Virus record (IMG/VR): IMGVR_UViG_3300049460_000196
Coordinates: 49,104 to 113,103 of that record
Source: a virus
Length of the DNA: 64,000 bases
Direction: 5' to 3' (one strand)
Shown: piece by piece, positions 5,140 through 49,107 of the stretch
How the letters are laid out: each line of letters begins with the position of its first letter
Numbering within the stretch: the first letter of the stretch is position 1
Notes under the pieces: generated by a model
Databases searched by the model: none
What the model was told of the DNA's origin: nothing
Seen by the model: only the letters and a program-made list of their open reading frames with translations
Program-made: the position numbers and the translations under genes

Positions 5140-5373
5140 TTATTGGAAAACTTTGGTGACGATCAGCATACGACCTGGATACTTGACCGAGCGAGTGGCG
5201 CCATCCAGATAGACTTTGCCATTTTTGATCTCAGTTACTTCCTTGATCTCGATGTCATACGACGTTGCGATTTTACCCAACACAACGCCACGGACGACTT
5301 TGTCGCCAACCTTGTAGTCGTTACCCAGCATGTCTTTGGCTTCGGTACCGAGGAAATCGCTCTGGATGGTCAT
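5140..5373 (-). CDS. hypothetical protein
   Basis: 77 aa, downstream of a sigma70-like promoter. Confidence 0.6.
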   Translation of the reverse strand: MTIQSDFLGTEAKDMLGNDYKVGDKVVRGVVLGKIATSYDIEIKEVTEIKNGKVYLDGATRSVKYPGRMLIVTKVFQ

Positions 5374-5404
5374 CTGCTACTCCGTGTTCGTTTATCTTGT
5401 TCCT

Positions 5405-5433
5405 ATTATAGGCGTAGATGAACAAACAATCAA
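5405..5433 (-). promoter_or_regulatory. sigma70-like early promoter
   Basis: TTGATT-17nt-TATAAT, TGTTCAT in spacer. Confidence 0.75.
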
Positions 5434-5436
5434 GTA

Positions 5437-5649
5437 TTAGTCACGTTTGTTTGCCAGTTCGTTCAACTGTTTGCTGAGGTCGGCGTCGGTTTCGGCGGTG
5501 ATCACGCCCAGCTTAACCATGTTGTTCATGGTACCACGATACACTTCAAACTCGCGGTTATCGAACGACTCAACCATCACGTGCTCGCGACCAGTGTCGC
5601 TGTCGAAGGTGTCGTAGTTGTGTTTGATCTGCGCGTTGATGATATACAT
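5437..5649 (-). CDS. hypothetical protein
   Basis: 70 aa, AGGAG RBS. Confidence 0.6.
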   Translation of the reverse strand: MYIINAQIKHNYDTFDSDTGREHVMVESFDNREFEVYRGTMNNMVKLGVITAETDADLSKQLNELANKRD

Positions 5650-5677
5650 GGTCGCTCCTGCATTTGTGTAGAATCAC

Positions 5678-5706
5678 ATTATAGACGCAGATGAACAGAA
5701 AATCAA
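5678..5706 (-). promoter_or_regulatory. sigma70-like early promoter
   Basis: TTGATT-17nt-TATAAT, TGTTCAT in spacer. Confidence 0.75.
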
Positions 5707-5714
5707 GTAATATT

Positions 5715-5985
5715 TGGTGGACCAGAGCGGAATTGAACCGCCACGACGTCGCGAACGTCTTTCCCAGTGCGGAGGACTTGTACTCACCTGAGTAGCCCAG
5801 CGAAGCACCAATACATGATGCTTTGGTGGACTATGGGGACTCGAACCCCCTCTCCCTGGCCCGTAATGATCAGCCTCGTGGGGCTTGTCCCACAATCTCC
5901 GCCATTAGATGTAGCGGTGCTGAATCACGCTTCTGAAGCTACTCGCTTGAAGCCGATCATTACGAGCGACTGTTGCCAGTCACCC
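5715..5985 (-). ncRNA. structured tRNA-like RNA with two T-arm/CCA ends
   Basis: T arm+ACCA at 5715 and 5824, 18-bp upstream helix, GCAA tetraloop hairpin. Confidence 0.65.
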
Positions 5986-5992
5986 AGCTGGT

Positions 5993-6277
5993 TTAATGGT
6001 CTTTGCAGTGACTCAGGTCGCCACGTGATGGCTTTGCACCAGCACGATGTTGTTTCGACCAGTCGTAATCTGCACCCGCGGAGGTAGCACCAGCTTTACC
6101 AACGCTGTTTGGGTTCTCGGATACCATAGTCACGAAACGAATCTTACCCGTTTCTTCACCTTCGCGGCGCAGAGCAGCCTGAAACTCCAGTGGCTCTGCC
6201 AACAGTACGGTATCAAACACGCGGGATTTTGCTTCCAGGCCGTCTTCGTGAACTTCCGACCAATAAATCATAAACAT
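5993..6277 (-). CDS. hypothetical protein
   Basis: 94 aa ORF with RBS. Confidence 0.65.
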   Translation of the reverse strand: MFMIYWSEVHEDGLEAKSRVFDTVLLAEPLEFQAALRREGEETGKIRFVTMVSENPNSVGKAGATSAGADYDWSKQHRAGAKPSRGDLSHCKDH

Positions 6278-15192: not shown

Positions 15193-15271
15193 TGGTAGCT
15201 GTGGTCGGCCTCGAACCGACAGAACCCTTTGTTTTGAGCAAAGGAGGTATTCCAATTCCCTTCACACAGCC
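15193..15271 (-). tRNA. tRNA-Leu(CAA), short variable loop
   Basis: cloverleaf, loop CT-CAA-AA, CCA. Confidence 0.8.
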
Positions 15272-15277
15272 ATTGTT

Positions 15278-15352
15278 TGGTGGAGCTAGTGGGACTCGAA
15301 CCCACGACCTACGACATGCCATGCCGCCGCTCTCCCTCTGAGCTATAACCCC
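15278..15352 (-). tRNA. tRNA-Ala(GGC)
   Basis: cloverleaf, G3.U70, CCA. Confidence 0.92.
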
Positions 15353-15358
15353 ATTGTT

Positions 15359-15442
15359 TGGTCCCCTGGGCGAGATTCGAACTCGCAAAAGCCTGCCTTC
15401 TGACGACAGTAGGTGTACCAGATTTCCACTAGCCACCAGGGG
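15359..15442 (-). tRNA. tRNA-Leu(CAG), expanded D region, short variable loop
   Basis: paralog of 9601..9684; loop GT-CAG-AA. Confidence 0.7.
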
Positions 15443-15451
15443 TAAAAATAC

Positions 15452-15624
15452 GTATTAGGGAAGGCAGGTTGGATTCAGGGATTGCCGCCCCTTGCACCAA
15501 CTTTCGGACTTGGCCCATTAGCCGCACAGACAGGGAACGTCGACTCCCCTATCCAGCATCCGACACTACCGTTCGACTTCCACATCAGTGCCTGTTCCTA
15601 CCAGGTTGCTGCCTTCTCTAATAC
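15452..15624 (-). ncRNA. structured RNA closed by a 16-bp terminal helix
   Basis: GTATTAGAGAAGGCAG / CTGCCTTCCCTAATAC, between tRNA genes. Confidence 0.55.
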
Positions 15625-15653
15625 ATACTTGGTATTTCATACTTGAAAAACTT

Positions 15654-15731
15654 TGGTGGATATGGGGAGACTCGAACTCCCACACGACGGTCTCTGAAAC
15701 CGCCAGGTATACCAATTCCCTTCACATATCC
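15654..15731 (-). tRNA. tRNA-Leu(CAG), short variable loop
   Basis: cloverleaf, loop TT-CAG-AG, CCA. Confidence 0.8.
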
Positions 15732-15733
15732 TT

Positions 15734-15809
15734 TGGTGCTGTTAGTTGGACTCGAACCAACCACCTCATACCTACCAAGTATGTGCTCTGCCAGATGAGC
15801 TATAACAGC
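15734..15809 (-). tRNA. tRNA-Thr(GGT)
   Basis: cloverleaf, CCA. Confidence 0.9.
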
Positions 15810-15810
15810 A

Positions 15811-15886
15811 TGGACCCACCAACACGACTCGAACGTGCGACCTCCTGAGTCGAAATCAGGCGCTCTTCCAACTGAGCTACGGTGGG
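15811..15886 (-). tRNA. tRNA-Arg(TCG)
   Basis: cloverleaf, CCA. Confidence 0.88.
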
Positions 15887-15887
15887 A

Positions 15888-16172
15888 TTAACTTTTGAAC
15901 ACGGAGTCTAACCACCAATGTGGGAACAAACCGTCCTCATACAACTCTTGCTTGAACAACGTGCCCAAGCACATATCCTCTTTCCACATTTTCACATGGA
16001 CATTCAGATACATTTTACCAACAGCATAACCATTATTGCCTGACACTGGTGTGCCAAATGATTCGCCGTTAAACAACTCCAACATAGCGTCATCGCTATG
16101 ATCTAACACATGATCCCAGTGACGAGAAAAGACTCTGTACACTTCGCACATGCGTTTGAACTTCTTACTCAC
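15888..16172 (-). CDS. hypothetical protein
   Basis: 94 aa ORF. Confidence 0.6.
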   Translation of the reverse strand: MSKKFKRMCEVYRVFSRHWDHVLDHSDDAMLELFNGESFGTPVSGNNGYAVGKMYLNVHVKMWKEDMCLGTLFKQELYEDGLFPHWWLDSVFKS

Positions 16173-16278
16173 ACCGTTGATGGTTAGCTTTGGCTGACCT
16201 TTGTTGCGTTTAGCTGTGACATGGCATCCTCCAGGGTTATTATTCGATTTCTATAGTCACGACGAAAGACGATGAGTC

Positions 16279-16392
16279 TTAGATTGCCAGTGCTGCCAGG
16301 CGCAAGGTGGTCGTGGTTGCCAAACCCAGAGTCAGAGCGGTTGCGGTAACGGTTAGCGATAAGTCAGCTTTTACGTAAGTGCGGTTGCTCAT
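16279..16392 (-). CDS. 37-aa Thr/Ala/Leu-rich peptide
   Basis: MSNRTYVKADLSLTVTATALTLGLATTTTLRLAALAI, GGAG RBS. Confidence 0.45.
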   Translation of the reverse strand: MSNRTYVKADLSLTVTATALTLGLATTTTLRLAALAI

Positions 16393-16414
16393 ATGAGACT
16401 CCATGGGTTAAAAG

Positions 16415-16490
16415 TGGTGGTGATGAAGGGATTCGAACCCCCGGTCCTCTCCGTATGAAGGAGTTGCTTTACCAACTAAGCTACATCACC
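16415..16490 (-). tRNA. tRNA with CAT anticodon (Met/Ile2)
   Basis: cloverleaf, loop TT-CAT-AC, CCA. Confidence 0.85.
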
Positions 16491-16770
16491 GTATTGATTG
16501 TATTGCATAAACCAAGCTGGGCAGCGTTGCCCGCAAAGTCCATTCAAATTCAGGTCTTGTTTGATTCAAGCTTATTATATCACCCAAAGGAAATACTCGA
16601 CCGTCTGGGTGCAAATAAGTGAATCGCATTTTGTTTGGATACCATTGGTAGAAAGTAGCTGGGCAAACCTTTGGATCATCCCTTGGGATCAGTATGCCAG
16701 TCACACCGCAGTCGCACAGGCGATGCGTCATAACTGCTGCAACTATCTTCTTAAATGTCTCTACCGTCAT
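16486..16770 (-). CDS. hypothetical protein
   Basis: start MTVET, between tRNAs. Confidence 0.5.
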   Translation of the reverse strand: MTVETFKKIVAAVMTHRLCDCGVTGILIPRDDPKVCPATFYQWYPNKMRFTYLHPDGRVFPLGDIISLNQTRPEFEWTLRATLPSLVYAIQSIR

Positions 16771-16781
16771 GGTATCATGTT

Positions 16782-16858
16782 TGGTTGCGGATGGGTGGAT
16801 TCGAACCACCGACGTAGAGGTTATGAGCCTCCTCTTCTGACCACTGAATTACACCGCA
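16782..16858 (-). tRNA. tRNA-Met(CAT), initiator-like body
   Basis: cloverleaf with bulged acceptor stem, CCA. Confidence 0.8.
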
Positions 16859-16948
16859 TTTGTTTGATCGACCCTCTTGCGAGGATGGCACTTTCTACAG
16901 CAGCCACTCCGTCTGTGAGCTTACGCTCGATCACTAAGCCGAAACCTG

Positions 16949-17257
16949 TTATCGTTTGACCAACTTACCGTCAACGACTTTAAATTCTTCATCTTCGAGT
17001 GGATGTGGCTCATCCACTTTGCTATCTGGGGTTGCCAATGCAGGATTGAGAACCTTTACTGTCTCCCAGAGCTTCCAGTCTATCGAATCAATTTTGGTTT
17101 GCATCTGTGCCAACTTATCGTTGATGCCCTGGAGGCCATATGCCATCACACGAAACATCTCAAGTTGAACTTCAATTTGCAAACGCTGCAATATTACGGG
17201 ATCTTCTGAATCCAAAGCATTCCGGTAACTCTTTACTGTATTTTCTATATCGCTCAT
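16949..17257 (-). CDS. hypothetical protein
   Basis: 102 aa ORF. Confidence 0.65.
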   Translation of the reverse strand: MSDIENTVKSYRNALDSEDPVILQRLQIEVQLEMFRVMAYGLQGINDKLAQMQTKIDSIDWKLWETVKVLNPALATPDSKVDEPHPLEDEEFKVVDGKLVKR

Positions 17258-17325
17258 ATGTCTCTCGCAGGATCAAGTCCTTTCTTGTTATTATACGGAC
17301 AAGAGACAACAGTGCAATATATGAT

Positions 17326-17402
17326 TGGTGGACAAGACCAGGAATCGAACCCGGCTTCCTCCGCCCTACTTCCAAGGCGACTGATTAGCGGATCACTTGC
17401 CC
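17326..17402 (-). ncRNA. tRNA-like RNA, G3.U70 acceptor, non-canonical anticodon loop
   Basis: GGGCAAG/CTTGTCC-ACCA, T loop TTCGATT. Confidence 0.65.
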
Positions 17403-17408
17403 AATGAC

Positions 17409-17484
17409 TGGTTGTTGAGAACGGGATCGAACCGTTGACCTGAGGTTTATCGAACCCCTGCTCTACCGACTGAGCTACTCAACA
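17409..17484 (-). tRNA. tRNA-Ile(GAT)
   Basis: cloverleaf, C33, CCA. Confidence 0.9.
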
Positions 17485-17492
17485 TCATATAA

Positions 17493-17554
17493 CTGGATGC
17501 CATTCTTTGGTTTTCGGAAAAGGAAAATTTAGAAAGGTTTGCTGTTGGCATCCA
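17493..17554 (-). ncRNA. stem+CAGCAA repeat RNA, copy A (CT-TTT-CC loop)
   Basis: TGGATGCCA/TGGCATCCA stem, ACAGCAA, hairpin TTTTC-CTTTTCC-GAAAA. Confidence 0.7.
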
Positions 17555-17621
17555 AAACTTGGTAGGATAAGTCAAGTATTCCCTTTGGCGGGGAACGTAG
17601 TTTATCAAACTTATCCAAAAC

Positions 17622-17706
17622 TGGTACCCTGGGCGAGACTCGAACTCGCAAACCTTACGGCACATGGACCTGAACCATGCGTGTCTTCCAATTCCACCAC
17701 CAGGGC
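17622..17706 (-). tRNA. tRNA-Leu(CAG)
   Basis: class II cloverleaf, CCA. Confidence 0.92.
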
Positions 17707-17721
17707 ATTACTGTATTACTA

Positions 17722-17924
17722 TCAAGTCGCGTGCTGCTACGCCAAAGGAGAGCTGCCCATACGCCGCCCAAGACGACTTTTGGCTACATGCTTCTATCAA
17801 CATTTATCCCTGCCACATCACCATTCTATACCACCACTAGGGTTCGGCATTATGGCATTTCGCGGCTCGGGTGCTTCGCTCCACTCATTAAGGATGGCTG
17901 CTTCTAAGCCAACCACAAGCTTGA
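17722..17924 (-). ncRNA. 23S rRNA L11-binding domain (H43/H44) mimic RNA
   Basis: GGTTGGCTTAGAAGCAGCCATCCTT then, after an insert, GGCGTAGCAGCAC; closed by TCAAG/CTTGA. Confidence 0.75.
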
Positions 17925-17960
17925 CTCAAGTACCTGACTGGCTGTCAGGATTTGGAGAAA

Positions 17961-18036
17961 TGGTAGTTCCTGACGGGTTCGAACCATCGACATCCACTTT
18001 GTAAGAGTGGCGCTCTACCAGCTGAGCTAAGGAACC
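17961..18036 (-). tRNA. tRNA-Val(TAC)
   Basis: cloverleaf, CCA. Confidence 0.92.
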
Positions 18037-18038
18037 AT

Positions 18039-18114
18039 TGGGGTGAAGGATGGGGATCGAACCCACGACGACCGGAATCACAATCCGGGACTCTACCACT
18101 GAGCTACCTACACC
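18039..18114 (-). tRNA. tRNA-His(GTG)
   Basis: cloverleaf, G-1/C73, CCA. Confidence 0.92.
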
Positions 18115-18124
18115 ATTGAAACTG

Positions 18125-18793
18125 TTACGGAAACTTCATCTTTCGACCAAGCTTCCAATTTCGAGAAAGCCACAAATCAATGTCTTCTCGATTTATCTTT
18201 ATCGTGCGCTTTTCTATTTCAGAAAATATCCACATAGTGCCATACTGCGAGTTACCAGTACCGCGTGCGCTTTTTGATACGTTATCTCCAATTTTCTTCT
18301 TGGTTTCTTCGGTATGATTTTTACCTTTAAAACTGGGAGGCGGCGTGCCTGGTAAATTGGCTATGCCTGCTGATGATCTATTGGTTTTTGTTTGTTTTGC
18401 CCATTCGGGGTCATTATCTCTCAACCATTGCTGCCTTTGTTGACTGATCTTATTCTTGGCAGTTTGACGACATGAATCGGCATTAATGATATTGTTAGGC
18501 CAACTGCTACCACCTAAAGATATGTTCATACACATCGGATCAGTTAGCATTTCGGCACACACCAATTCTGCTTCGCGTTCTCTCAACCACTCCCTACTGA
18601 AGTAATGCTCGAGAATCGCACATACGTGATTTTCCTTACCGTGAACATTAACTGATCGCCCAAGCAGTTTGCCAGAACCAATATAACCGTCATTCAGGTC
18701 ATAAGTGCTGTGCATACCCAAGTAATATTTTCCAGTCACAATGCACGTGGTGCGATATATGTAATGATACTGTCTGTTGGTCATATCCGCCAT
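18125..18793 (-). CDS. GIY-YIG homing endonuclease (Seg-like) with NUMOD3
   Basis: YIYRTTC...YYLGMH...YIGSG and GKNHTEETKKKIG motifs. Confidence 0.9.
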   Translation of the reverse strand: MADMTNRQYHYIYRTTCIVTGKYYLGMHSTYDLNDGYIGSGKLLGRSVNVHGKENHVCAILEHYFSREWLREREAELVCAEMLTDPMCMNISLGGSSWPNNIINADSCRQTAKNKISQQRQQWLRDNDPEWAKQTKTNRSSAGIANLPGTPPPSFKGKNHTEETKKKIGDNVSKSARGTGNSQYGTMWIFSEIEKRTIKINREDIDLWLSRNWKLGRKMKFP

Positions 18794-18822
18794 TGTATAT
18801 GACCATTGATATGGTGCAATAA

Positions 18823-18915
18823 AGTATTAAGGGGTGGCCACCGAGAATTGAACTCGAGTAAACGGGATCACAACCCGCGTCATTAACCACTATGATATGG
18901 CCACACCTTAATACT
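18823..18915 (-). tRNA. tRNA-His(GTG) with extended acceptor helix, no CCA
   Basis: ends CCT; flanks AGTATTAAGG/CCTTAATACT pair. Confidence 0.8.
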
Positions 18916-18977
18916 CTAAAGTGACGGTTACGAGCTCCGTCAATCGCTCTATATTGCGCTCGCTTTCTACTACTGTT

Positions 18978-19051
18978 TGGCAGGCCATGAGGGAATCGAA
19001 CCCCCGTCCTTGGTTTTGGAGACCAGTACACTACCGTTGTGCTAATGACCT
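18978..19051 (-). tRNA. tRNA-Trp(CCA)
   Basis: cloverleaf, CCA. Confidence 0.9.
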
Positions 19052-19057
19052 AATGTA

Positions 19058-19140
19058 TGGCAGGAGCTGTGGGACTCGAACCCACGTGGATTTCTCGACG
19101 GCTTTGGAGACCGTTGCAATCGCCGCTATGCGAAACTCCT
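19058..19140 (-). tRNA. tRNA-Trp(CCA), long variable region
   Basis: loop CT-CCA-AA, ~12-nt variable region, CCA. Confidence 0.8.
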
Positions 19141-19222
19141 GTTGAAACTAATTGTACCTGAGCCTCGAATTCCACGACGCCAGTCTATCCTTCAGGTACG
19201 TTTTGACGTATTGCTTGGCAGC

Positions 19223-19555
19223 TTACGCTGCTTTGTCTGGATATTGCTCATCCAGAATATCGATGTAATACAGTGGGCTCATGCCAGGTTCCAGGAAATG
19301 GACCTTGCTGAAGCCGTTTGCTTCATCGATCATGCTATCTTGTGGCTGGATGGCGCCGGCATACTTACGGAAGCCTGGCTTGTTCATCATCTTGCCTGTT
19401 GCTGGATCAATGGAACCCCATTCAGTCCAGTCTGTTTTACTACGACCATCAATCGGTTCAACGAAGTAGCGTTTGCCAGTACGTTGCGAGTTGACGATAA
19501 AACGACCAGTGTCGTCTGTGTTGGTAAGGAACCGTTTAAGGAAGTCGGCATTCAT
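19223..19555 (-). CDS. hypothetical protein
   Basis: start MNADF, 110 aa. Confidence 0.7.
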   Translation of the reverse strand: MNADFLKRFLTNTDDTGRFIVNSQRTGKRYFVEPIDGRSKTDWTEWGSIDPATGKMMNKPGFRKYAGAIQPQDSMIDEANGFSKVHFLEPGMSPLYYIDILDEQYPDKAA

Positions 19556-19666
19556 GTTATTATTCTCGGGTTGATTTAAAATCTCCGAGACATTGTCATC
19601 GGAGCAGCTTAGATTGTGATGACAAAGTGGTACATGATAGCCTCCATGGCTGGTTAATAAAATGTT

Positions 19667-19743
19667 TGGAGCGGATAGCGAGGTTCGAACTCGCGACATT
19701 CACGTTGGCAACGTGATGCTCTACCAGACTGAGCTATATCCGC
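19667..19743 (-). tRNA. tRNA-Gly(GCC)
   Basis: cloverleaf, U73, CCA. Confidence 0.92.
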
Positions 19744-19749
19744 ATTGTT

Positions 19750-19824
19750 TGGCGACGCCTAGGGGGATCGAACCCCTGACCTTCGGATGGACAATCCACT
19801 GCTCTTCCGCTGAGCTAAGGCGCC
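19750..19824 (-). tRNA. tRNA-Asp(GTC)
   Basis: cloverleaf, G73, CCA. Confidence 0.88.
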
Positions 19825-19877
19825 AATTTGTTAGGAAATTTCCTTAAAGATGATTTGCATTCATGTTTAAAGAAACT

Positions 19878-19953
19878 TGGTGGACGCGGTGGGGTTCGAA
19901 CCCACGACCTTCGGATTAAGAGTCCGTTACTCTACCAGCTGAGTTACACGTCC
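19878..19953 (-). tRNA. tRNA-Lys(CTT)
   Basis: cloverleaf, CCA. Confidence 0.92.
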
Positions 19954-19959
19954 GTACTG

Positions 19960-20035
19960 TGGTGGAAGTGGAGGGACTCGAACCCCCGTCGCACCGGTTA
20001 AGAGCCGGGCCTCTAGCCTGTTGAGTTACACTTCC
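19960..20035 (-). tRNA. tRNA-Lys(CTT)
   Basis: cloverleaf, CCA. Confidence 0.88.
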
Positions 20036-20048
20036 AAGTGTATTTGAT

Positions 20049-20136
20049 TGGTGGGAGCAGTGGGGATCGAACCCACTCTGGACTTTCGTCTCGCCGGATT
20101 AAAAGTCCGGTGCCTACCCAATTCGGCATTACTCCC
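20049..20136 (-). tRNA. tRNA-Lys(TTT), long variable arm
   Basis: loop CT-TTT-AA, GAC-GAAA-GTC variable hairpin, CCA. Confidence 0.8.
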
Positions 20137-20146
20137 TGTGAAACAA

Positions 20147-20221
20147 TGGTAGGGCCGCAGGAGCTCGAATCCTGTTTGTCTGGTTAAAAGCCAGATACTT
20201 CACCATTAAAGTTTCAACCCC
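20147..20221 (-). tRNA. tRNA-Lys(TTT)
   Basis: divergent cloverleaf, CCA. Confidence 0.8.
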
Positions 20222-20367
20222 TTTGATTTGACGTGGCACACGTCGATCTCGGGGGTGGCAGGAGCAATCCAATCAAACAACTACACTTGGAATTACTTAG
20301 TCACCCCCGAAAGTTTGCCAGATTTGTCACTTTCCATGACAGGCTCCTTTCAGAAATGTAATTTGGA

Positions 20368-20490
20368 TATTGCGATTTACCAGGTATCCCAATGACGAGA
20401 CCAATCGCTCCAACAGGCTGGAGTTCCAGATGATGCGCATTCAACTCGCGTTGACCATACGTGCCACTCACGGCATAACACCTCGCAATA
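20368..20490 (-). ncRNA. putative structured RNA
   Basis: TATTGCGA/TCGCAATA terminal stem, internal hairpins, within the tRNA array. Confidence 0.4.
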
Positions 20491-20495
20491 AAACT

Positions 20496-20571
20496 TGGTG
20501 GAGGATATCGGGATCGAACCGATGACCTTTAGCTTGCAAAGCTACTGCTCTCCCAGCTGAGCTAATCCCCC
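20496..20571 (-). tRNA. tRNA-Ala(TGC)
   Basis: cloverleaf, G3.U70, CCA. Confidence 0.93.
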
Positions 20572-20661
20572 AGGGTGGCAATGTTTGTACCGGTATGGCA
20601 AACATCACCCGCACATGCCGACTAGAACCTTTTCAGGGGATGAGGACATGAACGTTTAACT

Positions 20662-20738
20662 TGGTCTCCAGTGCAAGATTCGAACTTGCGCCCCATGGTC
20701 CCAAACCACGTGGATTAACCTGACTTTCCTAACCGGAG
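20662..20738 (-). tRNA. tRNA-Pro(TGG)
   Basis: cloverleaf, CCA. Confidence 0.88.
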
Positions 20739-20787
20739 ATAAAAACTTGGTATCTAGTACTGGTCTCGAACCAGTGACCTCATCGAT

Positions 20788-21045
20788 TTAATCGATTGTA
20801 CCGTTGACTTTTATTTGTACAAGATCGCTAAACATTTTAGAGATCCCACTCAACTCATTCAAATAATCTTCCGTCAACTTATCGTCTTCGGTTAATTCAA
20901 CTTTTAAATTAAGTTCAGCTCTTTGTTCTTGTACTTGTTTGTGAATAAGTGCAGTGGCCACTTGCAATGTGTCGATTGGTAAACTACTCGCCAACATAGC
21001 TACTGCATTCCGAAGTGCCAATATTTGTACTTGAGTTGATGACAT
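20788..21045 (-). CDS. hypothetical protein inside split tRNA
   Basis: 85 aa, start MSSTQ after AGGAG. Confidence 0.65.
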   Translation of the reverse strand: MSSTQVQILALRNAVAMLASSLPIDTLQVATALIHKQVQEQRAELNLKVELTEDDKLTEDYLNELSGISKMFSDLVQIKVNGTID

Positions 21046-21104
21046 ATGATTCTCCTTTAGAACAAACAGGATGCACATGTTTTTGTCATACCGCAATATT
21101 ATTC

Positions 21105-21179
21105 TGGTACTCACGGAAGGAATTGAACCTTCGACCCTCTCCACGTCAAGGAGGCATTCTACCACTGAACTACGTGAGC
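21105..21179 (-). tRNA. tRNA-Val(GAC), nested in split tRNA
   Basis: cloverleaf, CCA. Confidence 0.9.
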
Positions 21180-21180
21180 A

Positions 21181-21534
21181 TTATCTTTTCTTGTTACCCC
21201 AGGTAGGGGTCTGTCTGTGGCAGTTTGGACACAGAAATCTCAAATTATCTGGATGATTGTTGGTCTTTACCCCATCCATATGGTCGATATCCAAACTAAG
21301 TGGTTTACCGCACCAGTCACTTACTGCACAACATGAACAGGCATAACCGTCGCGTTCCGTTAAGAACTTGATCATCGCCGGGCTATTATAATGAACAGCA
21401 CCTTGCAATATTTTCGGTTTGGTAACCGATATCCAGGTAAATGCGTGTTGGCATTTGTTCGAGCAGTATTTGCCATTAAATGCTGGCGGTTTATACTTTG
21501 TTGGTTTACCACAATTGATACATGATCTTTCCAT
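21181..21534 (-). CDS. HNH endonuclease
   Basis: LDIDHMDGVKTNNHPDNLRFLCPNCH; TATAAATA at 21552-21559. Confidence 0.9.
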   Translation of the reverse strand: MERSCINCGKPTKYKPPAFNGKYCSNKCQHAFTWISVTKPKILQGAVHYNSPAMIKFLTERDGYACSCCAVSDWCGKPLSLDIDHMDGVKTNNHPDNLRFLCPNCHRQTPTWGNKKR

Positions 21535-21616
21535 ATAAGCACCTTTTCAGGTATTTATAAGAGCGATCTGGTTCAACGATGTGCTCTACCAACTGAGCTA
21601 ACTAGATATTGAAACT

Positions 21617-21691
21617 TGGCAGCGAATCTAGGGCTCGAACCTAGGACCTTGAGATTCAAAATCTCCTGCTCTACCTCTGAGCTAATCCGCA
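21617..21691 (-). tRNA. tRNA-Gln(TTG)
   Basis: cloverleaf, CCA. Confidence 0.88.
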
Positions 21692-21700
21692 ACTGAAACT

Positions 21701-21780
21701 TGGCGACCTAGATGGGTATCGAACCCACCTGAATATCTTCCGTGACAGGGAAGTGACCACTCCATGCAGTCCCCTAGGCC
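21701..21780 (-). tRNA. tRNA-Asp(GTC)
   Basis: divergent D arm, loop CT-GTC-AC, CCA. Confidence 0.82.
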
Positions 21781-21797
21781 ATATTACTAATTGTCAA

Positions 21798-21869
21798 TGG
21801 TCCCTCGTGATGGAGTCGAACCACCCTATTAGCGTTCGTAGCGCCAATGCCGTATCCCACGGACGAGAG
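21798..21869 (-). tRNA. tRNA-Arg(ACG), compact fold
   Basis: 6-bp anticodon stem TTGGCG/CGCTAA, CCA. Confidence 0.75.
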
Positions 21870-21872
21870 AAA

Positions 21873-21977
21873 TATTCTTAGTTGCGGGCCCTGGATTTGA
21901 ACCAGGACAAGCATTAGATGTCTCGGGATTATGAGCCCCGCGTGTTACCAGGTTACACTAACCCGCGACTAAGAATA
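21873..21977 (-). tRNA. initiator-type tRNA(CAT) with long variable region and extended acceptor helix, no CCA
   Basis: C1.A72, G-rich anticodon stem, flanks TATTCTTAGT/ACTAAGAATA. Confidence 0.75.
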
Positions 21978-21997
21978 CTTGGTATTACATACTTGAA

Positions 21998-22076
21998 TGG
22001 TGCGTCAGGCAGGGTTCGAACCTGCATGTGTCCAGTTACCTTTCGCCTGGTTCGTAGCCAAGGGGGATACTGACGC
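21998..22076 (-). tRNA. tRNA-Arg(ACG) lacking a D arm
   Basis: GCGTCAG/CTGACGC, loop CT-ACG-AA, T arm, CCA. Confidence 0.7.
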
Positions 22077-22078
22077 TT

Positions 22079-22153
22079 TGGTAGTTCCTGTTGGGATCGA
22101 ACCAACGACCTTCGCCTTGTAAGGGCGCTGCGCTACCTCTGCGCCAAGGAACC
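22079..22153 (-). tRNA. tRNA-Val(TAC)
   Basis: cloverleaf, CCA. Confidence 0.92.
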
Positions 22154-22169
22154 ATTGCATTGTTGATTG

Positions 22170-22246
22170 TGGTCGCTTCTGATAGTATCGACGTATCGTC
22201 TACCCCTCTTCACGGGGCCGCTAGTACCATTCTCAGCTAAGAAGCA
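22170..22246 (-). tRNA. tRNA-Phe(GAA), degenerate T loop
   Basis: loop GT-GAA-GA, T loop GTCGATA, CCA. Confidence 0.65.
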
Positions 22247-22279
22247 AGTTTTTATCAACAACGATTTACTACAAAAATC

Positions 22280-22354
22280 TGGCAGGGAATGTTGGGCTTG
22301 AACCAACGACCTTCGGATTCAGAATCCGCTGCTCTACCTCTGAGCTAATCCCCA
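22280..22354 (-). tRNA. tRNA-Gln(CTG)
   Basis: cloverleaf, CCA. Confidence 0.88.
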
Positions 22355-22371
22355 ACTGTGTACTACTAAAC

Positions 22372-22446
22372 TGGTGCCCCAGGATGGAATCGAACCACCG
22401 CACGCTGCTTACAAAACAGCACCTCTACCATTAAGGATACAAGGGC
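22372..22446 (-). tRNA. tRNA-Thr(TGT)
   Basis: cloverleaf, CCA. Confidence 0.85.
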
Positions 22447-22450
22447 GTAA

Positions 22451-22554
22451 TATCGTTTGCTCCGAGAGCTGGATTCGAACCAGCGGCGGCCTTTACGGCG
22501 ACGGATTAACAGTCCGGTCTCTGCTACCACTCGAGTACCTCGGAGCAAACAATA
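22451..22554 (-). tRNA. tRNA-Asn(GTT), long variable arm, extended acceptor helix, no CCA
   Basis: loop CT-GTT-AA; flanks TATTGTTTGC/GCAAACGATA. Confidence 0.75.
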
Positions 22555-22563
22555 CTACCTATA

Positions 22564-22655
22564 AATCATATGCTGTCAAGACTGGGCTCGAACCAGTGAC
22601 CCGATGATTAACAGTCATCTGCTCTACCAACTGAGCTACATGACAGCATATGATT
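22564..22655 (-). tRNA. tRNA-Asn(GTT), extended acceptor helix, no CCA
   Basis: flanks AATCATATGC/GCATATGATT. Confidence 0.82.
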
Positions 22656-22663
22656 CATAAACT

Positions 22664-22741
22664 TGGTGGTGTTGGGCGGCCTCGAACCGCCAAGCAACAG
22701 GATCTCGACCTGTTAGGTATACCAATTCCCTTCACAACACC
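22664..22741 (-). tRNA. tRNA-Leu(GAG), short variable loop
   Basis: loop TC-GAG-AT, CCA. Confidence 0.78.
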
Positions 22742-22742
22742 T

Positions 22743-22819
22743 TGGTAGTCCCTGTTGGATTTGAACCAACGACCTATGCGTTATCAACACATTGCTCTAA
22801 CCAGCTGAGCTAAGGAACC
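22743..22819 (-). tRNA. tRNA-Ile(GAT)
   Basis: cloverleaf, CCA. Confidence 0.92.
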
Positions 22820-22829
22820 TTCGTATTAA

Positions 22830-22886
22830 CGGGATGACTTTTGGTTTCTGTTTTCAAAAGAAGTTTTTAGTTGCTGTACGCATCCC
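22830..22886 (-). ncRNA. stem+CAGCAA repeat RNA, copy B (TT-GAA-AA loop)
   Basis: GGGATG/CATCCC stem, GTACAGCAA. Confidence 0.7.
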
Positions 22887-22909
22887 ATAAGTCTTGCGAC
22901 TCATTTTCT

Positions 22910-22985
22910 TGGCTAGGGTTGATGGACTCGAACCACCGACATACGGGATCAAAACCCGCTGTTCTACCAACTGAACTAAACCCCA
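22910..22985 (-). tRNA. tRNA-Gln(TTG)
   Basis: cloverleaf, CCA. Confidence 0.9.
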
Positions 22986-22996
22986 ACTGTAAACCA

Positions 22997-23071
22997 TGGT
23001 CGTTGATATTGGTATCGAACCAATCTCTATGCCTTATCAAGACATTGCTAATCCATCTCAGCTAATCAACG
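22997..23071 (-). tRNA. tRNA-Ile(GAT)
   Basis: cloverleaf, CCA. Confidence 0.85.
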
Positions 23072-23081
23072 ATTTAATACT

Positions 23082-23158
23082 TGGCGGAACAGACGGGGCT
23101 CGAACCCGCGACCTTCGCCGTGACAGGGCGACGCTCTAACCAACTGAGCTACTGCTCC
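23082..23158 (-). tRNA. tRNA-Asp(GTC)
   Basis: canonical cloverleaf, CCA. Confidence 0.95.
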
Positions 23159-23202
23159 AACGACATGCAGGGCAGTTTTGCCTCACATCATGTTATGAAA
23201 TC

Positions 23203-23273
23203 TGGTGGACCGTACGGGACTCGAACCCGTGATAGAGCATTGCAAGTGCCCCGCCAACCCCTGAAGACAGCCC
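23203..23273 (-). tRNA. tRNA-Ala(TGC), reduced D arm
   Basis: G3.U70, loop CT-TGC-AA, CCA. Confidence 0.75.
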
Positions 23274-23293
23274 AGAAATCTTATTACTAAACT

Positions 23294-23369
23294 TGGTGCA
23301 GTCAACTGGTATCGAACCAGTATCCCCGGACTTTCAAACCGTCGCATAGACCATCTTTGCTATGACTGC
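23294..23369 (-). tRNA. tRNA-Phe(GAA)
   Basis: cloverleaf with weak anticodon stem, CCA. Confidence 0.78.
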
Positions 23370-23399
23370 ATGAAACTTGATTGCTCAAGTTCTAAAACT

Positions 23400-23474
23400 T
23401 GGTGCCCCCGGTTGGTATCGAACCAACCTCTACGACTTTTCAGGCCGTCGCTAATCCATCTCAGCTACAGGGGC
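23400..23474 (-). tRNA. tRNA-Phe(GAA)
   Basis: cloverleaf, CCA. Confidence 0.88.
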
Positions 23475-23479
23475 ATATT

Positions 23480-23598
23480 CACATTATTCAAATTCACTAT
23501 GTCAGATGTGAAGGGATCGAACCTTCGACCTCATGGTCCCAAACCACGCGCTCTCCCTGGCTGAGCTAACACCTGACATAATAAACTTGAATAATGTG
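23480..23598 (-). tRNA. tRNA-Pro(TGG) with 23-bp extended acceptor helix, no CCA
   Basis: flanks pair fully, with three G.U pairs. Confidence 0.8.
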
Positions 23599-34026: not shown

Positions 34027-35601
34027 TTACTGATTTGCGCGAGCGCGGACTTCTTCCAGATCGTATTCTTTCAGGATTTGACCGTTGTACCACACGTCTT
34101 GCATGACTTCGGTGTGATCCTCGGTCATGTCTTCGATACGGATGGTCATGTACTCGCCGACCTTGCTTTGCACCACGGTCAAGCGACCTGCTTTGCTACG
34201 CTTACCCGAGTCGGTGATTGGATCCTTGAACACGTCGACCCATACGCCGTCAACTTCGGCCGCGCACGTCTTTTCAGCGAACTTGTAGGTATCGCGGTTG
34301 ACTTGTTGCAGCAGACCACCACCCTGACCGAAGACCATGTTTTCGATCGAGAAGCCGGCCGATTTCACTGCCATGCAAATGCGCTCGAAATCTTCAGGTT
34401 TCGACAAGCCGTCACCTTGCAGGATGCGGACAACGTTCAGGACTTTGTAGCCCTTGCTGTTGACCGTAACGCCGAAGCCTTCTTCGAAGATCTTCAGCAG
34501 TTCCAGGATGACCGTGACTGCGTCGCCGCTGTCTGGACGAACAACCAGCTTGATGCCTTTGTCCAGGATCTTTTGGCGCAGATCGCCTTTCGCGAATTCA
34601 CGTGCCAGGTTGAAGATGTCGTAGCCGTCGCTGACGATCGAGATCAACGTACCGACACCAAAGCGGCCGAATTCGTCGATGATGTCGTTCACGGTTTTCA
34701 GCTCGCCGTCACGACCACGCATGGTCATGATGCTGTGTTCAGTTGCGAACACGCTGTAGGCCGACATTTCGCTGTTGTAGTACGTGTTCGCGAACAGCGC
34801 ACCCGTGATAGTGTCGGTGCCCATTGCACCCGTTGCCAGGTGAGCGGCGCCGCCGATACCAGCCGATACGATGCTCGAAACGCCGCGGGCGCCGAAGTCG
34901 TGGAACATGAACGCAATTGCTTCAGCGATCGACAGATCCGAGGTTTCGCTGATGTACTTCTTCAGGATGTTACGAACGGTCATGGAACGCGACGCAACCG
35001 TCGTTGGGTACCAGACTGCACGCAGCATCGAGGTCTCGAAGTATGCGACCATCCAGGCGAGTTCTGGGTCGGTGCTTTCGATGGTGACCAGCGCATTGCG
35101 GGAGTCGATCACCATACCTTCTGGCAGAGCGCGGATGCGCAGTGGCAGGTGGCCGCCGTAGACGTTGACCACTTTTTCCCAGTCTGCGCGGGGGAAGATT
35201 TCTTTGCCGCCGATGATGTGCTTCTCGAAGAACGCTTCAGCCTGATCGATCATTTCCATGGTGATCGGGCGCAGACGTTTGATCCAGATTTGCAGACCGA
35301 AGAACAGCACTTTCTCCGCAAACGAACGCGGTTCGATGTAGCTGAACGCACCGGTCACGCCCAAACGGCCGTACATTGCTTGGTGGCACAGCTTGTACGA
35401 GTCAACGTCCAGGATGACGTTGTCTTCAGGCTTTTCGATCGTGCGGGGATCACCCAGCAGTTTCAGATCAGCCCACAGTTTAGCGCGACGGATGGAGTCG
35501 GCGATGAACTGGTCAGCTTGTGCTTTAGCGGCATCCAGGGTGGCTACCGATACGGCTTGTTTGGTATAGCTGGTTTCGATTACGTTGTCTTCAGTTTTCA
35601 T
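34027..35601 (-). CDS. nadV: nicotinamide phosphoribosyltransferase
   Basis: DSYK, WYPTTVA, HDFGARG, ATEHS, RPDSGD, QGDG and KDPITD motifs. Confidence 0.95.
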   Translation of the reverse strand: MKTEDNVIETSYTKQAVSVATLDAAKAQADQFIADSIRRAKLWADLKLLGDPRTIEKPEDNVILDVDSYKLCHQAMYGRLGVTGAFSYIEPRSFAEKVLFFGLQIWIKRLRPITMEMIDQAEAFFEKHIIGGKEIFPRADWEKVVNVYGGHLPLRIRALPEGMVIDSRNALVTIESTDPELAWMVAYFETSMLRAVWYPTTVASRSMTVRNILKKYISETSDLSIAEAIAFMFHDFGARGVSSIVSAGIGGAAHLATGAMGTDTITGALFANTYYNSEMSAYSVFATEHSIMTMRGRDGELKTVNDIIDEFGRFGVGTLISIVSDGYDIFNLAREFAKGDLRQKILDKGIKLVVRPDSGDAVTVILELLKIFEEGFGVTVNSKGYKVLNVVRILQGDGLSKPEDFERICMAVKSAGFSIENMVFGQGGGLLQQVNRDTYKFAEKTCAAEVDGVWVDVFKDPITDSGKRSKAGRLTVVQSKVGEYMTIRIEDMTEDHTEVMQDVWYNGQILKEYDLEEVRARANQ

Positions 35602-35624
35602 GATAATTCCTATCAATGTTAAAA

Positions 35625-35709: not shown

Positions 35710-36858
35710 TTACTGATATTTTTTCAACTGGCTCAGTGCGTACAGGAGCATGTCGTAGTGATCTTCGAAGAACTGGATGCGCGACAGCATGTGAACAGGA
35801 ACCCAGATTGCTTCTTTGGCGTCGTCACTGCCTTTTACTTTAGGCAGACCTTTGCCATCGCTTGGCAGCACGATGATTTGTGCAGTAGTGATGACGCGAC
35901 CACGGCGGGAACGGTTGACGGCGTCGAAGACTTTTTCTTCCTTGATGCAGCCGCGAATCAGTGCTTCGGGCAGCTTGATCTTGGTTTCTTCGAACAGTTC
36001 ACGGATGCCGCATTCGAGCATGCTTGCATCAGCTTTGATCAGCTCGCCCTTCTTGTTCGTGTAGGTCTTGGCGTTGACGAATCCGCCTGGGAATGCCAAC
36101 AGGTTTTTGCCTGGATTGGACTTACGGCGGATCAGCAGGACGTGACCATCTTTGAACACGATTGCGTCGCCGGTGTTGAACGTGATCGGATATGGCAGGT
36201 GCTCGAATTGCTTGCGATAGTCCCGGATGTACTTGGCTTCGTCAACCACGTATTGGTAGTTGGTCGAAGTCAGGAAGCGTTCCAGGAAACGCGCAGTTGC
36301 GCTTGGTACAACACCTTTGAACAGGTTCAGATTGCACTTCGGGCTGAAGTACAGTTCGCGGATAGTGGTTGCATCCAGGATTTCCACCAGCGGCATTTCG
36401 ATCGGCTCGCCCCACTGCGGGAACATCTTCAGGTAGAAGCTCGAATCGTCTTTGCTGTGGCCGATCAACTTCACGTTGTCGCCGAGCAGCAGCGGCTGAA
36501 CTTGTGCTGCGACGTCCATGCCCCAGCCTGCATTGCTGTAACGTTGGTTTTCTACAGAGATGAACTTCAGGCGGTCGTCCAGATCATCGACTGGAATGTT
36601 GCGAGCGATGCATGCGTCGTGGATGCTTTCGCGGATCACTTCCATGCGTTCGTCTTGCGTGAACGGATTGTCTTCGTCACGCGGTTCGTTCGCAGAACCC
36701 ACTGCCACGATCACACGGTAGGCCAGCGTCATGGCGTGCATGATCGTTTCCAGGTGTGCATTATGGAATGGTTGGAAGCGGCCAATGTAGATGACCGTGT
36801 CATACGCATATTTGATAGCCTGCGCAATAGGCTTGAGGGTTGGTGCTGCGGTTGTCAT
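35710..36858 (-). CDS. nadM: bifunctional NMN adenylyltransferase / Nudix hydrolase
   Basis: IGRFQPFHNAH, Nudix box PGGF...RELFEET, GSDDA and FFEDH motifs. Confidence 0.93.
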   Translation of the reverse strand: MTTAAPTLKPIAQAIKYAYDTVIYIGRFQPFHNAHLETIMHAMTLAYRVIVAVGSANEPRDEDNPFTQDERMEVIRESIHDACIARNIPVDDLDDRLKFISVENQRYSNAGWGMDVAAQVQPLLLGDNVKLIGHSKDDSSFYLKMFPQWGEPIEMPLVEILDATTIRELYFSPKCNLNLFKGVVPSATARFLERFLTSTNYQYVVDEAKYIRDYRKQFEHLPYPITFNTGDAIVFKDGHVLLIRRKSNPGKNLLAFPGGFVNAKTYTNKKGELIKADASMLECGIRELFEETKIKLPEALIRGCIKEEKVFDAVNRSRRGRVITTAQIIVLPSDGKGLPKVKGSDDAKEAIWVPVHMLSRIQFFEDHYDMLLYALSQLKKYQ

Positions 36859-36879
36859 GATAATTCCTATCAAGTTATG

Positions 36880-36902
36880 CTCAACTGGTCTATCCGGTCG
36901 AG
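36880..36902 (-). promoter_or_regulatory. GG-ATAGA-CC leader hairpin before nadM
   Basis: CTCGAC/GTTGAG lower stem. Confidence 0.55.
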
Positions 36903-36964
36903 GTACTACTGGTGGGTTTATTGCCACACCGTCATGCTACTGGCTTCAGGCCAGTTACGCAAGA

Positions 36965-48787: not shown

Positions 48788-49107
48788 TAGTCTTTCTTTC
48801 CATGCTCAAGAATGAAGGCACGCTTCTCTTCTCGAGTCATATTATTGGGCATCTGTATTGATGGGCTATCAAGTGCTTCCTGAATGCGTTTGATATTCAG
48901 GTCGAGTTCAACATCGATTAAATGTTCAGGGGTGGGATGACCTCGATATTGCTCTAGTTCACGTTCATCCCATTCGGCCCTGATTTCGTTCTGGTATGTC
49001 AGACCATCAATTGGACCACCTTCGCGATTCTTCCACAGACCGAATAAAGACTCAATCGCTTTACGTCGACGCTCAAGGCGTTCATCGTAGTCGGTAAGGT
49101 CGCTCAT
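48787..49107 (-). CDS. VapB/CopG-antitoxin-like protein
   Basis: FGLWKNR...DGLTYQNEIRAEWD resembles antitoxin C-termini (recognised by eye). Confidence 0.55.
   Translation of the reverse strand: MSDLTDYDERLERRRKAIESLFGLWKNREGGPIDGLTYQNEIRAEWDERELEQYRGHPTPEHLIDVELDLNIKRIQEALDSPSIQMPNNMTREEKRAFILEHGKKD

Follow-up and report, generated by a model that had tools for sequence, protein, structure and literature searches.

Why would a virus carry a near-literal copy of the GTPase-associated (uL11-binding) domain of 23S rRNA (the GAC) among its tRNA genes? The question is raised by one locus in the window, by which we mean the whole stretch of 64,000 nucleotides analysed here (positions 49,104 to 113,103 of the IMG/VR virus record IMGVR_UViG_3300049460_000196). 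The element at this locus belongs to a large phage RNA family and is not a stray piece of rRNA; it would be a stand-alone non-coding RNA, and it mimics the GAC in both sequence and structure.

A self-closed copy of the GAC

An earlier note, made from the sequence alone, had matched positions 17890-17914 to helix 43 (H43) of 23S rRNA. The reverse complement does read GGTTGGCTTAGAAGCAGCCATCCTT, which places the match on the minus strand. The note had also described a sequence resembling the H44 loop after a structured insert of about 140 nt, with pairing ends and no other rRNA nearby, and each of these observations was borne out. The loop-like sequence is GGCGTAGCAGCAC at 17743-17731(-), 152 nt past the H43 15-mer; the true insert measures 136 nt (17882-17747) and is followed by a UUU linker; the ends (17925-17916 and 17729-17721) form 9 bp, with C17919 bulged, in the unconstrained MFE fold as well as in the fold constrained by the family model; and only tRNAs reach Rfam gathering thresholds in the window, where no rRNA family that could supply an operon context (16S, 5S) was found at its gathering score. 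The structural reading of the note, with an embedded H43 and H44 loop, a structured insert, and paired ends, is supported by covariation and by the match to the family model described below, but the insert does not lie between H43 and H44. The 5′ strand of H44 (GAGU) follows H43 directly, and the insert is located inside H44, at rRNA position 1090/1091. The layout of the element is given in Table 1.

Table 1. Parts of the GAC-mimic element and its neighbours in the window
Feature	Position	Strand	Basis or detail
Whole GAC-mimic RNA element, 205 nt	17721-17925	(-)	Match to model R1; ends set by closing helix
P1 5′ strand, equivalent to top of H42 (rRNA ~1051-1056), C17919 bulged	17916-17925	(-)	Folds
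H43 copy (rRNA 1057-1081)	17891-17915	(-)	Exact 15-mer; LSU model alignment
Junction and H44 5′ strand, UAAUGAGU	17883-17890	(-)	G1087 = 17886, A1088 = 17885, U1090 = 17883
Insert, 136 nt, at rRNA position 1090/1091; multi-helix domain	17747-17882	(-)	Constrained fold
Subfamily motif GCCGCGAAAUG, 5′ strand of G.U-rich helix with AAA bulge	17856-17866	(-)	RNAalifold consensus
Subfamily motif UGAUGUGGC, 3′ strand of G.U-rich insert helix, one A unpaired	17812-17820	(-)	RNAalifold consensus
UUU linker, insert stem to H44 tip	17744-17746	(-)	Family conservation
GGCGUAGCAGCAC, H44 tip, loop and 3′ strand	17731-17743	(-)	Motif conserved in family
P1 3′ strand	17721-17729	(-)	Folds
Upstream tRNA-Val(UAC)	17961-18036	(-)	ARAGORN and Rfam; 3′ end 35 nt before element
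Spacer hairpin CCUGAC-AGCCA-GUCAGG, between tRNA-Val and element	17933-17949	(-)	MFE fold of 17707-17960(-)
Downstream tRNA-Leu(CAG)	17622-17706	(-)	ARAGORN and Rfam; start 14 nt past element

The H43 copy contains the 15-mer GGCUUAGAAGCAGCC, exact, at 17910-17896(-), with the loop UUAGAAGCA (A1067 = 17905, U1060 = 17912) and the base pairs G17914-C17892 and G17913-C17893. Within the window, the 18-mer GGCTTAGAAGCAGCCATC is unique, while shuffled sequences predict 0.01 matches even when two mismatches are allowed. In the comparison with LSU rRNA that the earlier note had suggested, the Rfam bacterial LSU model (RF02541) aligns to H43, at 17892-17914(-), but the alignment is local only, confined to model positions 1099-1121 (= H43), and at 13.6 bits lies below the gathering score of 50. 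In BLASTN comparisons with phage genomes in INPHARED, the whole 254-nt intergenic stretch found no match, while the 5′ half alone found relatives, because the inserts differ. Rfam searches at gathering thresholds and at E values up to 10 returned only tRNAs and this weak local LSU match, and the same was true of seven other members of the family. A plus-strand open reading frame at 17507-18004 runs antisense across two tRNA genes and was rejected as a gene.

The secondary structure of the top of H42, H43 and H44 is present in the window element, including the pairs G1059-C1079 and G1087-C1102. So are the U1060-A1088 pair (U17912 and A17885) and all six loop-loop tertiary nucleotides (G1071, C1072, G1091-C1100, and C1092-G1099). 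Within GGCGUAGCAGCAC, the pairs G1091-C1100 and C1092-G1099 form the tip, GUAGCA forms the loop (A1095 = 17738), and A1101 and C1102 form the 3′ strand, while the insert is closed by a stem of its own in the constrained fold, in which GGAG (17882-17879) pairs with CUCC (17750-17747). The window copy is off-consensus at the three-way junction, where it has U.U at 1057.1081, lacks position 1082 (UAAU), and has G in place of A1103; the junction, UAAUGAGU, is therefore 1 nt shorter than the family consensus UUAAAGAGU, and the 1082/1086 junction pair is absent from this copy. Owing to these departures, the window copy fits the rRNA fold less exactly than most members do. The UAAU variant is common to eight family members, the window and seven others, and the junction-variant pattern is in part common to locus L075 and six others. 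The single-sequence fold is no better than those of shuffled sequences (z of -0.5 to -0.6); therefore, evidence beyond chance must come from homologues.

Members and distribution of the family

The family was delimited by a covariance model (R1) and two alignments (A1 and A2). R1 was trained on 24 other phage copies, with the window sequence left out, and gave a single match in the 64-kb window, at 17921-17723(-), covering the full model (positions 1-148) with 68 bits and an E value of 7.7e-16. Members were collected by two scans, the first of viral contigs with the H43 15-mer and the second of IMG/VR with the phage-type 3′ motif alone; since both scans were anchored on a motif, conservation of the anchoring motif itself is no evidence. 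In the H43-anchored scan, GGCGUARYAGCAC (with up to two mismatches) followed 58-363 nt downstream at 91 of 122 places among the matches listed, giving at least 85 distinct elements, so that the H44-like part that the earlier note had singled out is conserved in homologues. The 3′-motif-anchored scan added at least 70 new loci, and together the two IMG/VR motif scans yielded at least about 150 further distinct copies. R1 found all 70 viral loci fetched by the 3′ motif alone, none of which had been used in building it, and most of these matches had E values below 1e-9.

Unannotated copies are present in cultured phages, namely the Pseudomonas phages pf16, UNO-G1W1, Milchi, and Astolliot, the Xanthomonas phages XacN1 and XbC2, Aeromonas phage 4_4572, Paenibacillus phage Pd_22F, Serratia phage BF, and several Erwinia jumbo phages. 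In bacterial assemblies, about 26 of 120 matches listed for the 3′ motif are complete elements, mostly on contigs of metagenome-assembled genomes from many phyla, and the remainder are chance 17-mers. The family extends over phages of Gammaproteobacteria and Firmicutes and, to judge from contigs that were assigned to further phyla by binning, over phages of other hosts as well. The element is duplicated in two loci, L069 (5126-5361 and 5444-5707) and L198, as diverged copies a few hundred nucleotides apart. Rfam 15 contains no such family, and no description of such an RNA was found in the full-text literature that can be searched free of subscription; given this coverage, an earlier description of the family may exist.

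Covariation and conservation

When the structure derived from rRNA was imposed on alignment A2, 94.8% of cells were paired, compared with 72.8% in shuffles. The covariation score was 0.553, against 0.133 for shuffled alignments (none of 500 shuffles reached 0.553) and 0.07-0.15 for slid partners, and 11 of 20 pairs showed compensatory double changes. Strong covariation is located in H42, the base of H43, and the insert stem. Among the matches listed, 57 members have canonical spacing; in this canonical set pairing in the closing helix (H42) reaches 91-100% and involves four pair types, pair 1057-1081 is A-U in 46 and C-G in 10, pair 1058-1080 is U-A in 26, G-C in 18, A-U in 7, and C-G in 5, and the tertiary junction pair 1082/1086 is U.A in 34 and C.G in 19. 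The first three pairs of the insert-closing stem are 89-100% paired, with all pair types, and in A2 double changes occur in all four pairs of this stem.

Several positions that the search pattern left free to vary show little or no variation: G1059-C1079, U1060, A1077, U1083, A1084, A1085, G1087-C1102, A1088, G1093, U1094, A1098, and A1103. U1060 and A1088 are found in all 57 canonical members. In the H44 loop, G1093, U1094, and A1098 never change and 54 members retain A1095, while G1091, C1092, G1099, and C1100 are each kept in 56, and each of the three linker positions is U in 55-57. Position 1089 is G in 55 and position 1090 is U in 56 of the 57, and pf16 and XacN1 likewise keep this GU, where the single gammaproteobacterial 23S rRNA examined, that of Salmonella, has AA. 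Three family features are absent from rRNA altogether, namely the U1090-A1101 pair, the UUUG linker, and the insert.

These results bear on the simplest alternative, in which a scrap of host 23S rDNA without any function, or an assembly contaminant, accounts for the element. The 25 nt identical to bacterial H43 would fit such an origin, as would the rRNA contaminants that INPHARED holds and that match the same query. However, only the part from the top of H42 to H44 is present, interrupted and self-closed, and every helix is kept by compensatory changes. The scrap reading is already contradicted by the covariation and by the family signature, including the GU shared with pf16 and XacN1, and we give it almost no probability. 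Recent capture from host rRNA was rejected as well, as the family-specific signature is kept across hosts; this signature argues for one evolving phage family over repeated capture of host rDNA.

Variation within H43 was examined in 101 distinct 3′-anchored members among the matches listed, a sample that is unbiased for H43. The exact H43 consensus occurs in 53 of them. Changes cluster at 1065 (9 members), A1067 (G in 11), G1068 (A in 19), A1070 (G in 14), and 1076, while G1063, C1064, U1066, A1069, G1071 (99 of 101), C1072 (101 of 101), A1073, G1074, and C1075 are almost fixed; in one lineage, C1064-G1074 is swapped for A-U. G1071 and C1072 are the nucleotides which we take to make loop-loop triples with H44 in rRNA crystal structures. 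The U1060-A1088 pair is hydrogen-bonded by the C-terminal domain of uL11, and A1067 is the key determinant of thiostrepton binding, at which eukaryotes have G (PMC2175356). Since U1060-A1088 and the tertiary nucleotides are fixed and A1067 is relaxed, the pattern of variation fits selection for a compact fold and for uL11 contact more than selection for thiopeptide or factor contacts. H43 also offers a second insertion point, in that an extra hairpin follows A1077 or U1078, often with a loop resembling UUGAGAA or UUGAGCA, in loci L006, L022, L032, L036, L063, L068, L089, L092, L099, L113, L116, and L118.

Insert and subfamilies

The insert ranges from a 26-nt hairpin (in full members of 89 nt) to more than 330 nt and falls into unrelated subfamilies, which leaves the GAC copy as the common core. 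The subfamily of the window, with about 14 sampled members, has an invariant G.U-rich helix with an AAA/A internal loop, formed by GYGCGAAAUG and UGAUGUGC. GC-AAA-G is invariant in the 14 members and pairs with 17812-17820 in the RNAalifold consensus; UGAUGU is likewise invariant (14 of 14), and the neighbouring pairs covary between C-G and U-A (7:7). A group I intron at LSU site 1090 was suggested by the boundaries of the insert (U before it, G at its end) and was rejected because Intron_gpI had no matches in the window or in the eight loci with the longest inserts, the two ends of the insert are paired to one another, and the shortest inserts measure only 26 nt. As the insert enters H44 itself, it might disturb the fold.

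The insert motifs bear on another alternative, in which the RNA is a sponge or scaffold for a different GAC partner: uL10-(bL12)n, a translational GTPase, RelA, or a thiopeptide together with uL11. The element reproduces the apposition G/A1056.A1103 together with the top of H42, a region adjoining the uL10 site, and the invariant subfamily motifs suggest a second binding site. In addition, the only occurrence of GAUGUGG in 23S rRNA is at the H42 base. The partner strand of the insert motif, however, matches 23S rRNA better elsewhere than at H42, so the insert was set aside as a copy of the H42 base (the uL10 side) and is at most a weak lead. The closing helix, at 5-9 bp, is shorter than what we presume to be the uL10 footprint; A1067 and G1068, the contacts of thiopeptides and factors, are the least conserved loop positions; and the inserts differ completely between subfamilies. 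A different partner of this kind is therefore rather improbable, although uL11 binding, for its part, leaves the conserved insert motifs of the subfamily unexplained.

Genomic context

The record is a 113-kb IMG/VR virus judged to be about 27% complete, which implies a very large phage. ARAGORN made 54 calls in the window (53 tRNAs and one tmRNA), all on the minus strand. The element lies in a dense tRNA array at 15193-23575(-) of about 40 genes with duplicated anticodons (e.g., three Asp-GUC, three Ile-GAU, and three Gln), upstream of which a sigma-70-like promoter match (TTGACA-16 nt-TAGAGT) is located at 24284-24257. The same arrangement recurs in the family: in 85 loci among the matches listed, 473 of 474 neighbouring tRNAs are on the strand of the element, with one opposite, and 46 of the 85 elements lie within 300 nt of a tRNA, many of them within 15 nt on one or both sides. 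Copies outside tRNA arrays can have an intrinsic terminator of their own, as in locus L004 and XacN1.

No protein family is a constant neighbour. When 1,708 neighbouring open reading frames were clustered, no family occurred in more than seven of about 110 loci among the matches listed, and the commonest were homing endonucleases of the HNH, GIY-YIG, and PD-(D/E)XK types, as expected in phage tRNA regions. In the window, the open reading frame at 18125-18793(-) upstream of the element (222 aa) has weak GIY-YIG (SegE-like) and NUMOD3 matches and likely encodes a homing endonuclease; in three other loci (L048, L067, and L075), a homologue is located immediately upstream of the element. The 113-kb contig carries one copy of the element and no gene for uL11 or RelA/SpoT. 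The lack of a constant partner gene, together with the lack of these genes on the contig, points to a ligand supplied by the host.

A role in cis, as a leader, terminator, or processing signal for flanking genes like the leaders of r-protein operons, was considered in this light. In loci free of tRNAs, a U-run often follows the end of the element at a distance of 3-5 nt, or a Shine-Dalgarno sequence and ATG at 10-25 nt, and a YunG-like gene lies downstream in five loci and an SSB gene in five bacterial contigs. The downstream genes are nevertheless mutually unrelated, most copies, that of the window included, lie between two tRNAs, and no Rfam leader family matched at E values up to 10, so that a cis role has only a very small probability.

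By one conserved protein of 604 aa (PHROG 8578), the phage is distantly related to the giant siphoviruses of Caulobacter and Brevundimonas, to which this protein has 45-48% identity; it is annotated as a putative tail protein in Caulobacter phage CcrPW, and its function is unassigned. The element is absent from all four of the nearest cultured relatives (giant siphoviruses of Caulobacter and Brevundimonas), for which Serratia phage BF served as a control at 67 bits, and the distribution of the family is thus patchy.

Possible functions

The earlier note had proposed that the RNA titrates uL11, dampens the stringent response, or decoys a toxin that targets rRNA, and all three remain plausible; among them, the sequence evidence leans towards uL11 binding. 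Under this proposal, the element would be transcribed together with the phage tRNA array and probably released by RNase P and the 3′ tRNA-processing enzymes, as suggested by the many elements within 15 nt of tRNAs. The 5′ and 3′ parts would then fold into a self-closed copy of the top of H42, H43, and H44, with the variable extra domain plugged into H44 between 1090 and 1091, generating what may be a high-copy imitation of the GAC that works off the ribosome. The most likely ligand would be the ribosomal protein uL11 of the host. The isolated GAC rRNA domain binds uL11 tightly, and uL11 is the one tight binder of this isolated domain that we know of. If uL11 were soaked up, ribosomes would run short of it, and as a result, RelA activation may be blunted and factor-dependent GTPase steps changed. 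Ribosomes poor in uL11 fail to activate RelA (the relC phenotype); on the other hand, most uL11 is already on mature ribosomes, which may limit the size of any sponge effect. We consider the chances about even that the element is an off-ribosome GAC mimic whose ligand is host uL11.

The main rival is that the RNA draws off, as a decoy substrate, an enzyme directed against the ribosomal GAC, such as an ADP-ribosyltransferase or RNase of a host defence or a competitor, and so spares the ribosomes. One known toxin has precisely this target: Tre23 blocks the GTPase of EF-G by ADP-ribosylation of H44 at 1095-1098 (PMC8661411). Anti-phage nucleases that cut both rRNA and tRNA upon infection are also known, namely RAZR (PMC13017515) and Retron-Kva2 (preprint). 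The near-complete conservation of the H44 loop described above would suit a decoy, as would the position of the element in tRNA arrays and the RNA ligase gene that lies just upstream in one cultured carrier, XacN1. Phage tRNA arrays are thought to counter defences that target tRNAs, a parallel for the decoy reading. In XacN1 (locus L122, 150606-151256), the element comes directly after a gene annotated as 2′-5′ RNA ligase, whose product matches Pfam RNA_ligase (PF09414, E value of 6e-26), and is followed by a strong intrinsic terminator. Against a decoy, (i) no anti-phage system aimed at the GAC was found in the literature searched, and Tre23 is an interbacterial T6SS toxin; (ii) tens of thousands of ribosomes would outcompete the decoy unless it were strongly preferred; and (iii) no repair or reversal enzyme is a constant neighbour. 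On balance, a decoy seems unlikely, if less so than any of the other rivals.

In wider terms, the family may represent a dedicated RNA sponge or decoy of the GAC in large phages of many bacterial phyla, which would either withhold uL11, silencing RelA-dependent stringent control, or absorb an undiscovered immune effector, and it would then be the first virus-encoded mimic of an rRNA domain acting in trans. This wider reading, which leaves the choice of ligand free, we regard as moderately probable.

Comparison with known RNAs

Compared with the GAC of 23S rRNA (E. coli 1051-1108, the 58-nt domain that binds uL11 and thiostrepton), the phage RNA has the same three-way junction and an identical H43 sequence, and the family shares the GUARYA loop, U1060-A1088, G1059-C1079, G1087-C1102, the purine 1056.A1103, and a covarying 1082/1086. 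Unlike its counterpart within the 2.9-kb rRNA, the phage RNA is free-standing, with a length of 89 to about 430 nt; its H44 is split at 1090/1091 by the stem-closed insert with the UUUG linker; A1101 replaces U1101 and pairs with U1090; A1067 and G1068 are relaxed; and the window copy lacks position 1082.

The mRNA leaders of r-protein operons (L10_leader and the L1 leader) are likewise RNAs outside the ribosome that copy an rRNA site for an r-protein. These are cis-acting 5′ leaders of bacterial operons with a loose resemblance to rRNA, whereas the phage element is a near-literal copy that lies mostly between tRNA genes and has no r-protein gene nearby; in the window, tRNA genes on both sides, the absence of a leader match in Rfam at the permissive threshold given above, and a contig free of a uL11 gene all agree with this distinction. 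The tRNAs and tmRNAs of phage arrays share the location and strand of the element and likely its transcription and processing, and both kinds of RNA copy host RNAs of translation. However, tRNAs and tmRNA are usable as such, while an isolated rRNA domain is no substitute for its counterpart in the ribosome, and the element must therefore act as a mimic. In its proposed action, it would resemble protein-sponge RNAs (6S RNA and those of the CsrB/RsmY type), abundant RNAs that titrate a protein by imitating its target; it has no sequence or structural relation to them, and its ligand is proposed by inference only. Lastly, the phage RNA presents the loop attacked by Tre23 (H44 1095-1098) in the same fold. 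To our knowledge, no Tre23-like toxin takes part in phage defence, and the link is one of analogy only.

Implications

If this reading holds, phages carry, besides spare tRNAs, a free-standing RNA that imitates a functional centre of the ribosome. Such RNAs would form a novel class of non-coding RNA in viruses and open a new route by which to interfere with the control of host translation or with immunity. Because the family is abundant, with at least about 150 further copies, and occurs in cultured phages whose hosts are tractable (P. putida phage pf16, Serratia phage BF, Xanthomonas phage XacN1, and Aeromonas phage 4_4572), the hypothesis is directly testable. The family would also offer a natural, compact, and stabilised uL11-binding domain for structural work, and its variation would distinguish nucleotides required by the fold and by uL11 from those that factors and thiopeptides require.

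Other features near the element and in the window

The one tmRNA call by ARAGORN in the window, a permuted form at 5435-5914(-), is probably false, as an Rfam search of 5300-6100 at E values up to 1 found no tmRNA or other family. In other phages, a type-P5 twister ribozyme (38 bits, just over its gathering score) and phage tmRNA genes do occur near the element; these ribozyme and tmRNA matches are at L113:12687-12763(+), L113:13276-13663(+), and L107:8163-8535(-). Farther along the window, a nicotinamide phosphoribosyltransferase gene (34027-35616(-), PHROG 448, E value of 7e-136) is accompanied by a cytidylyltransferase/NUDIX fusion (35710-36927(-), PHROG 395), and the two form an NAD+ salvage pair of the kind that phages use to rebuild NAD+.
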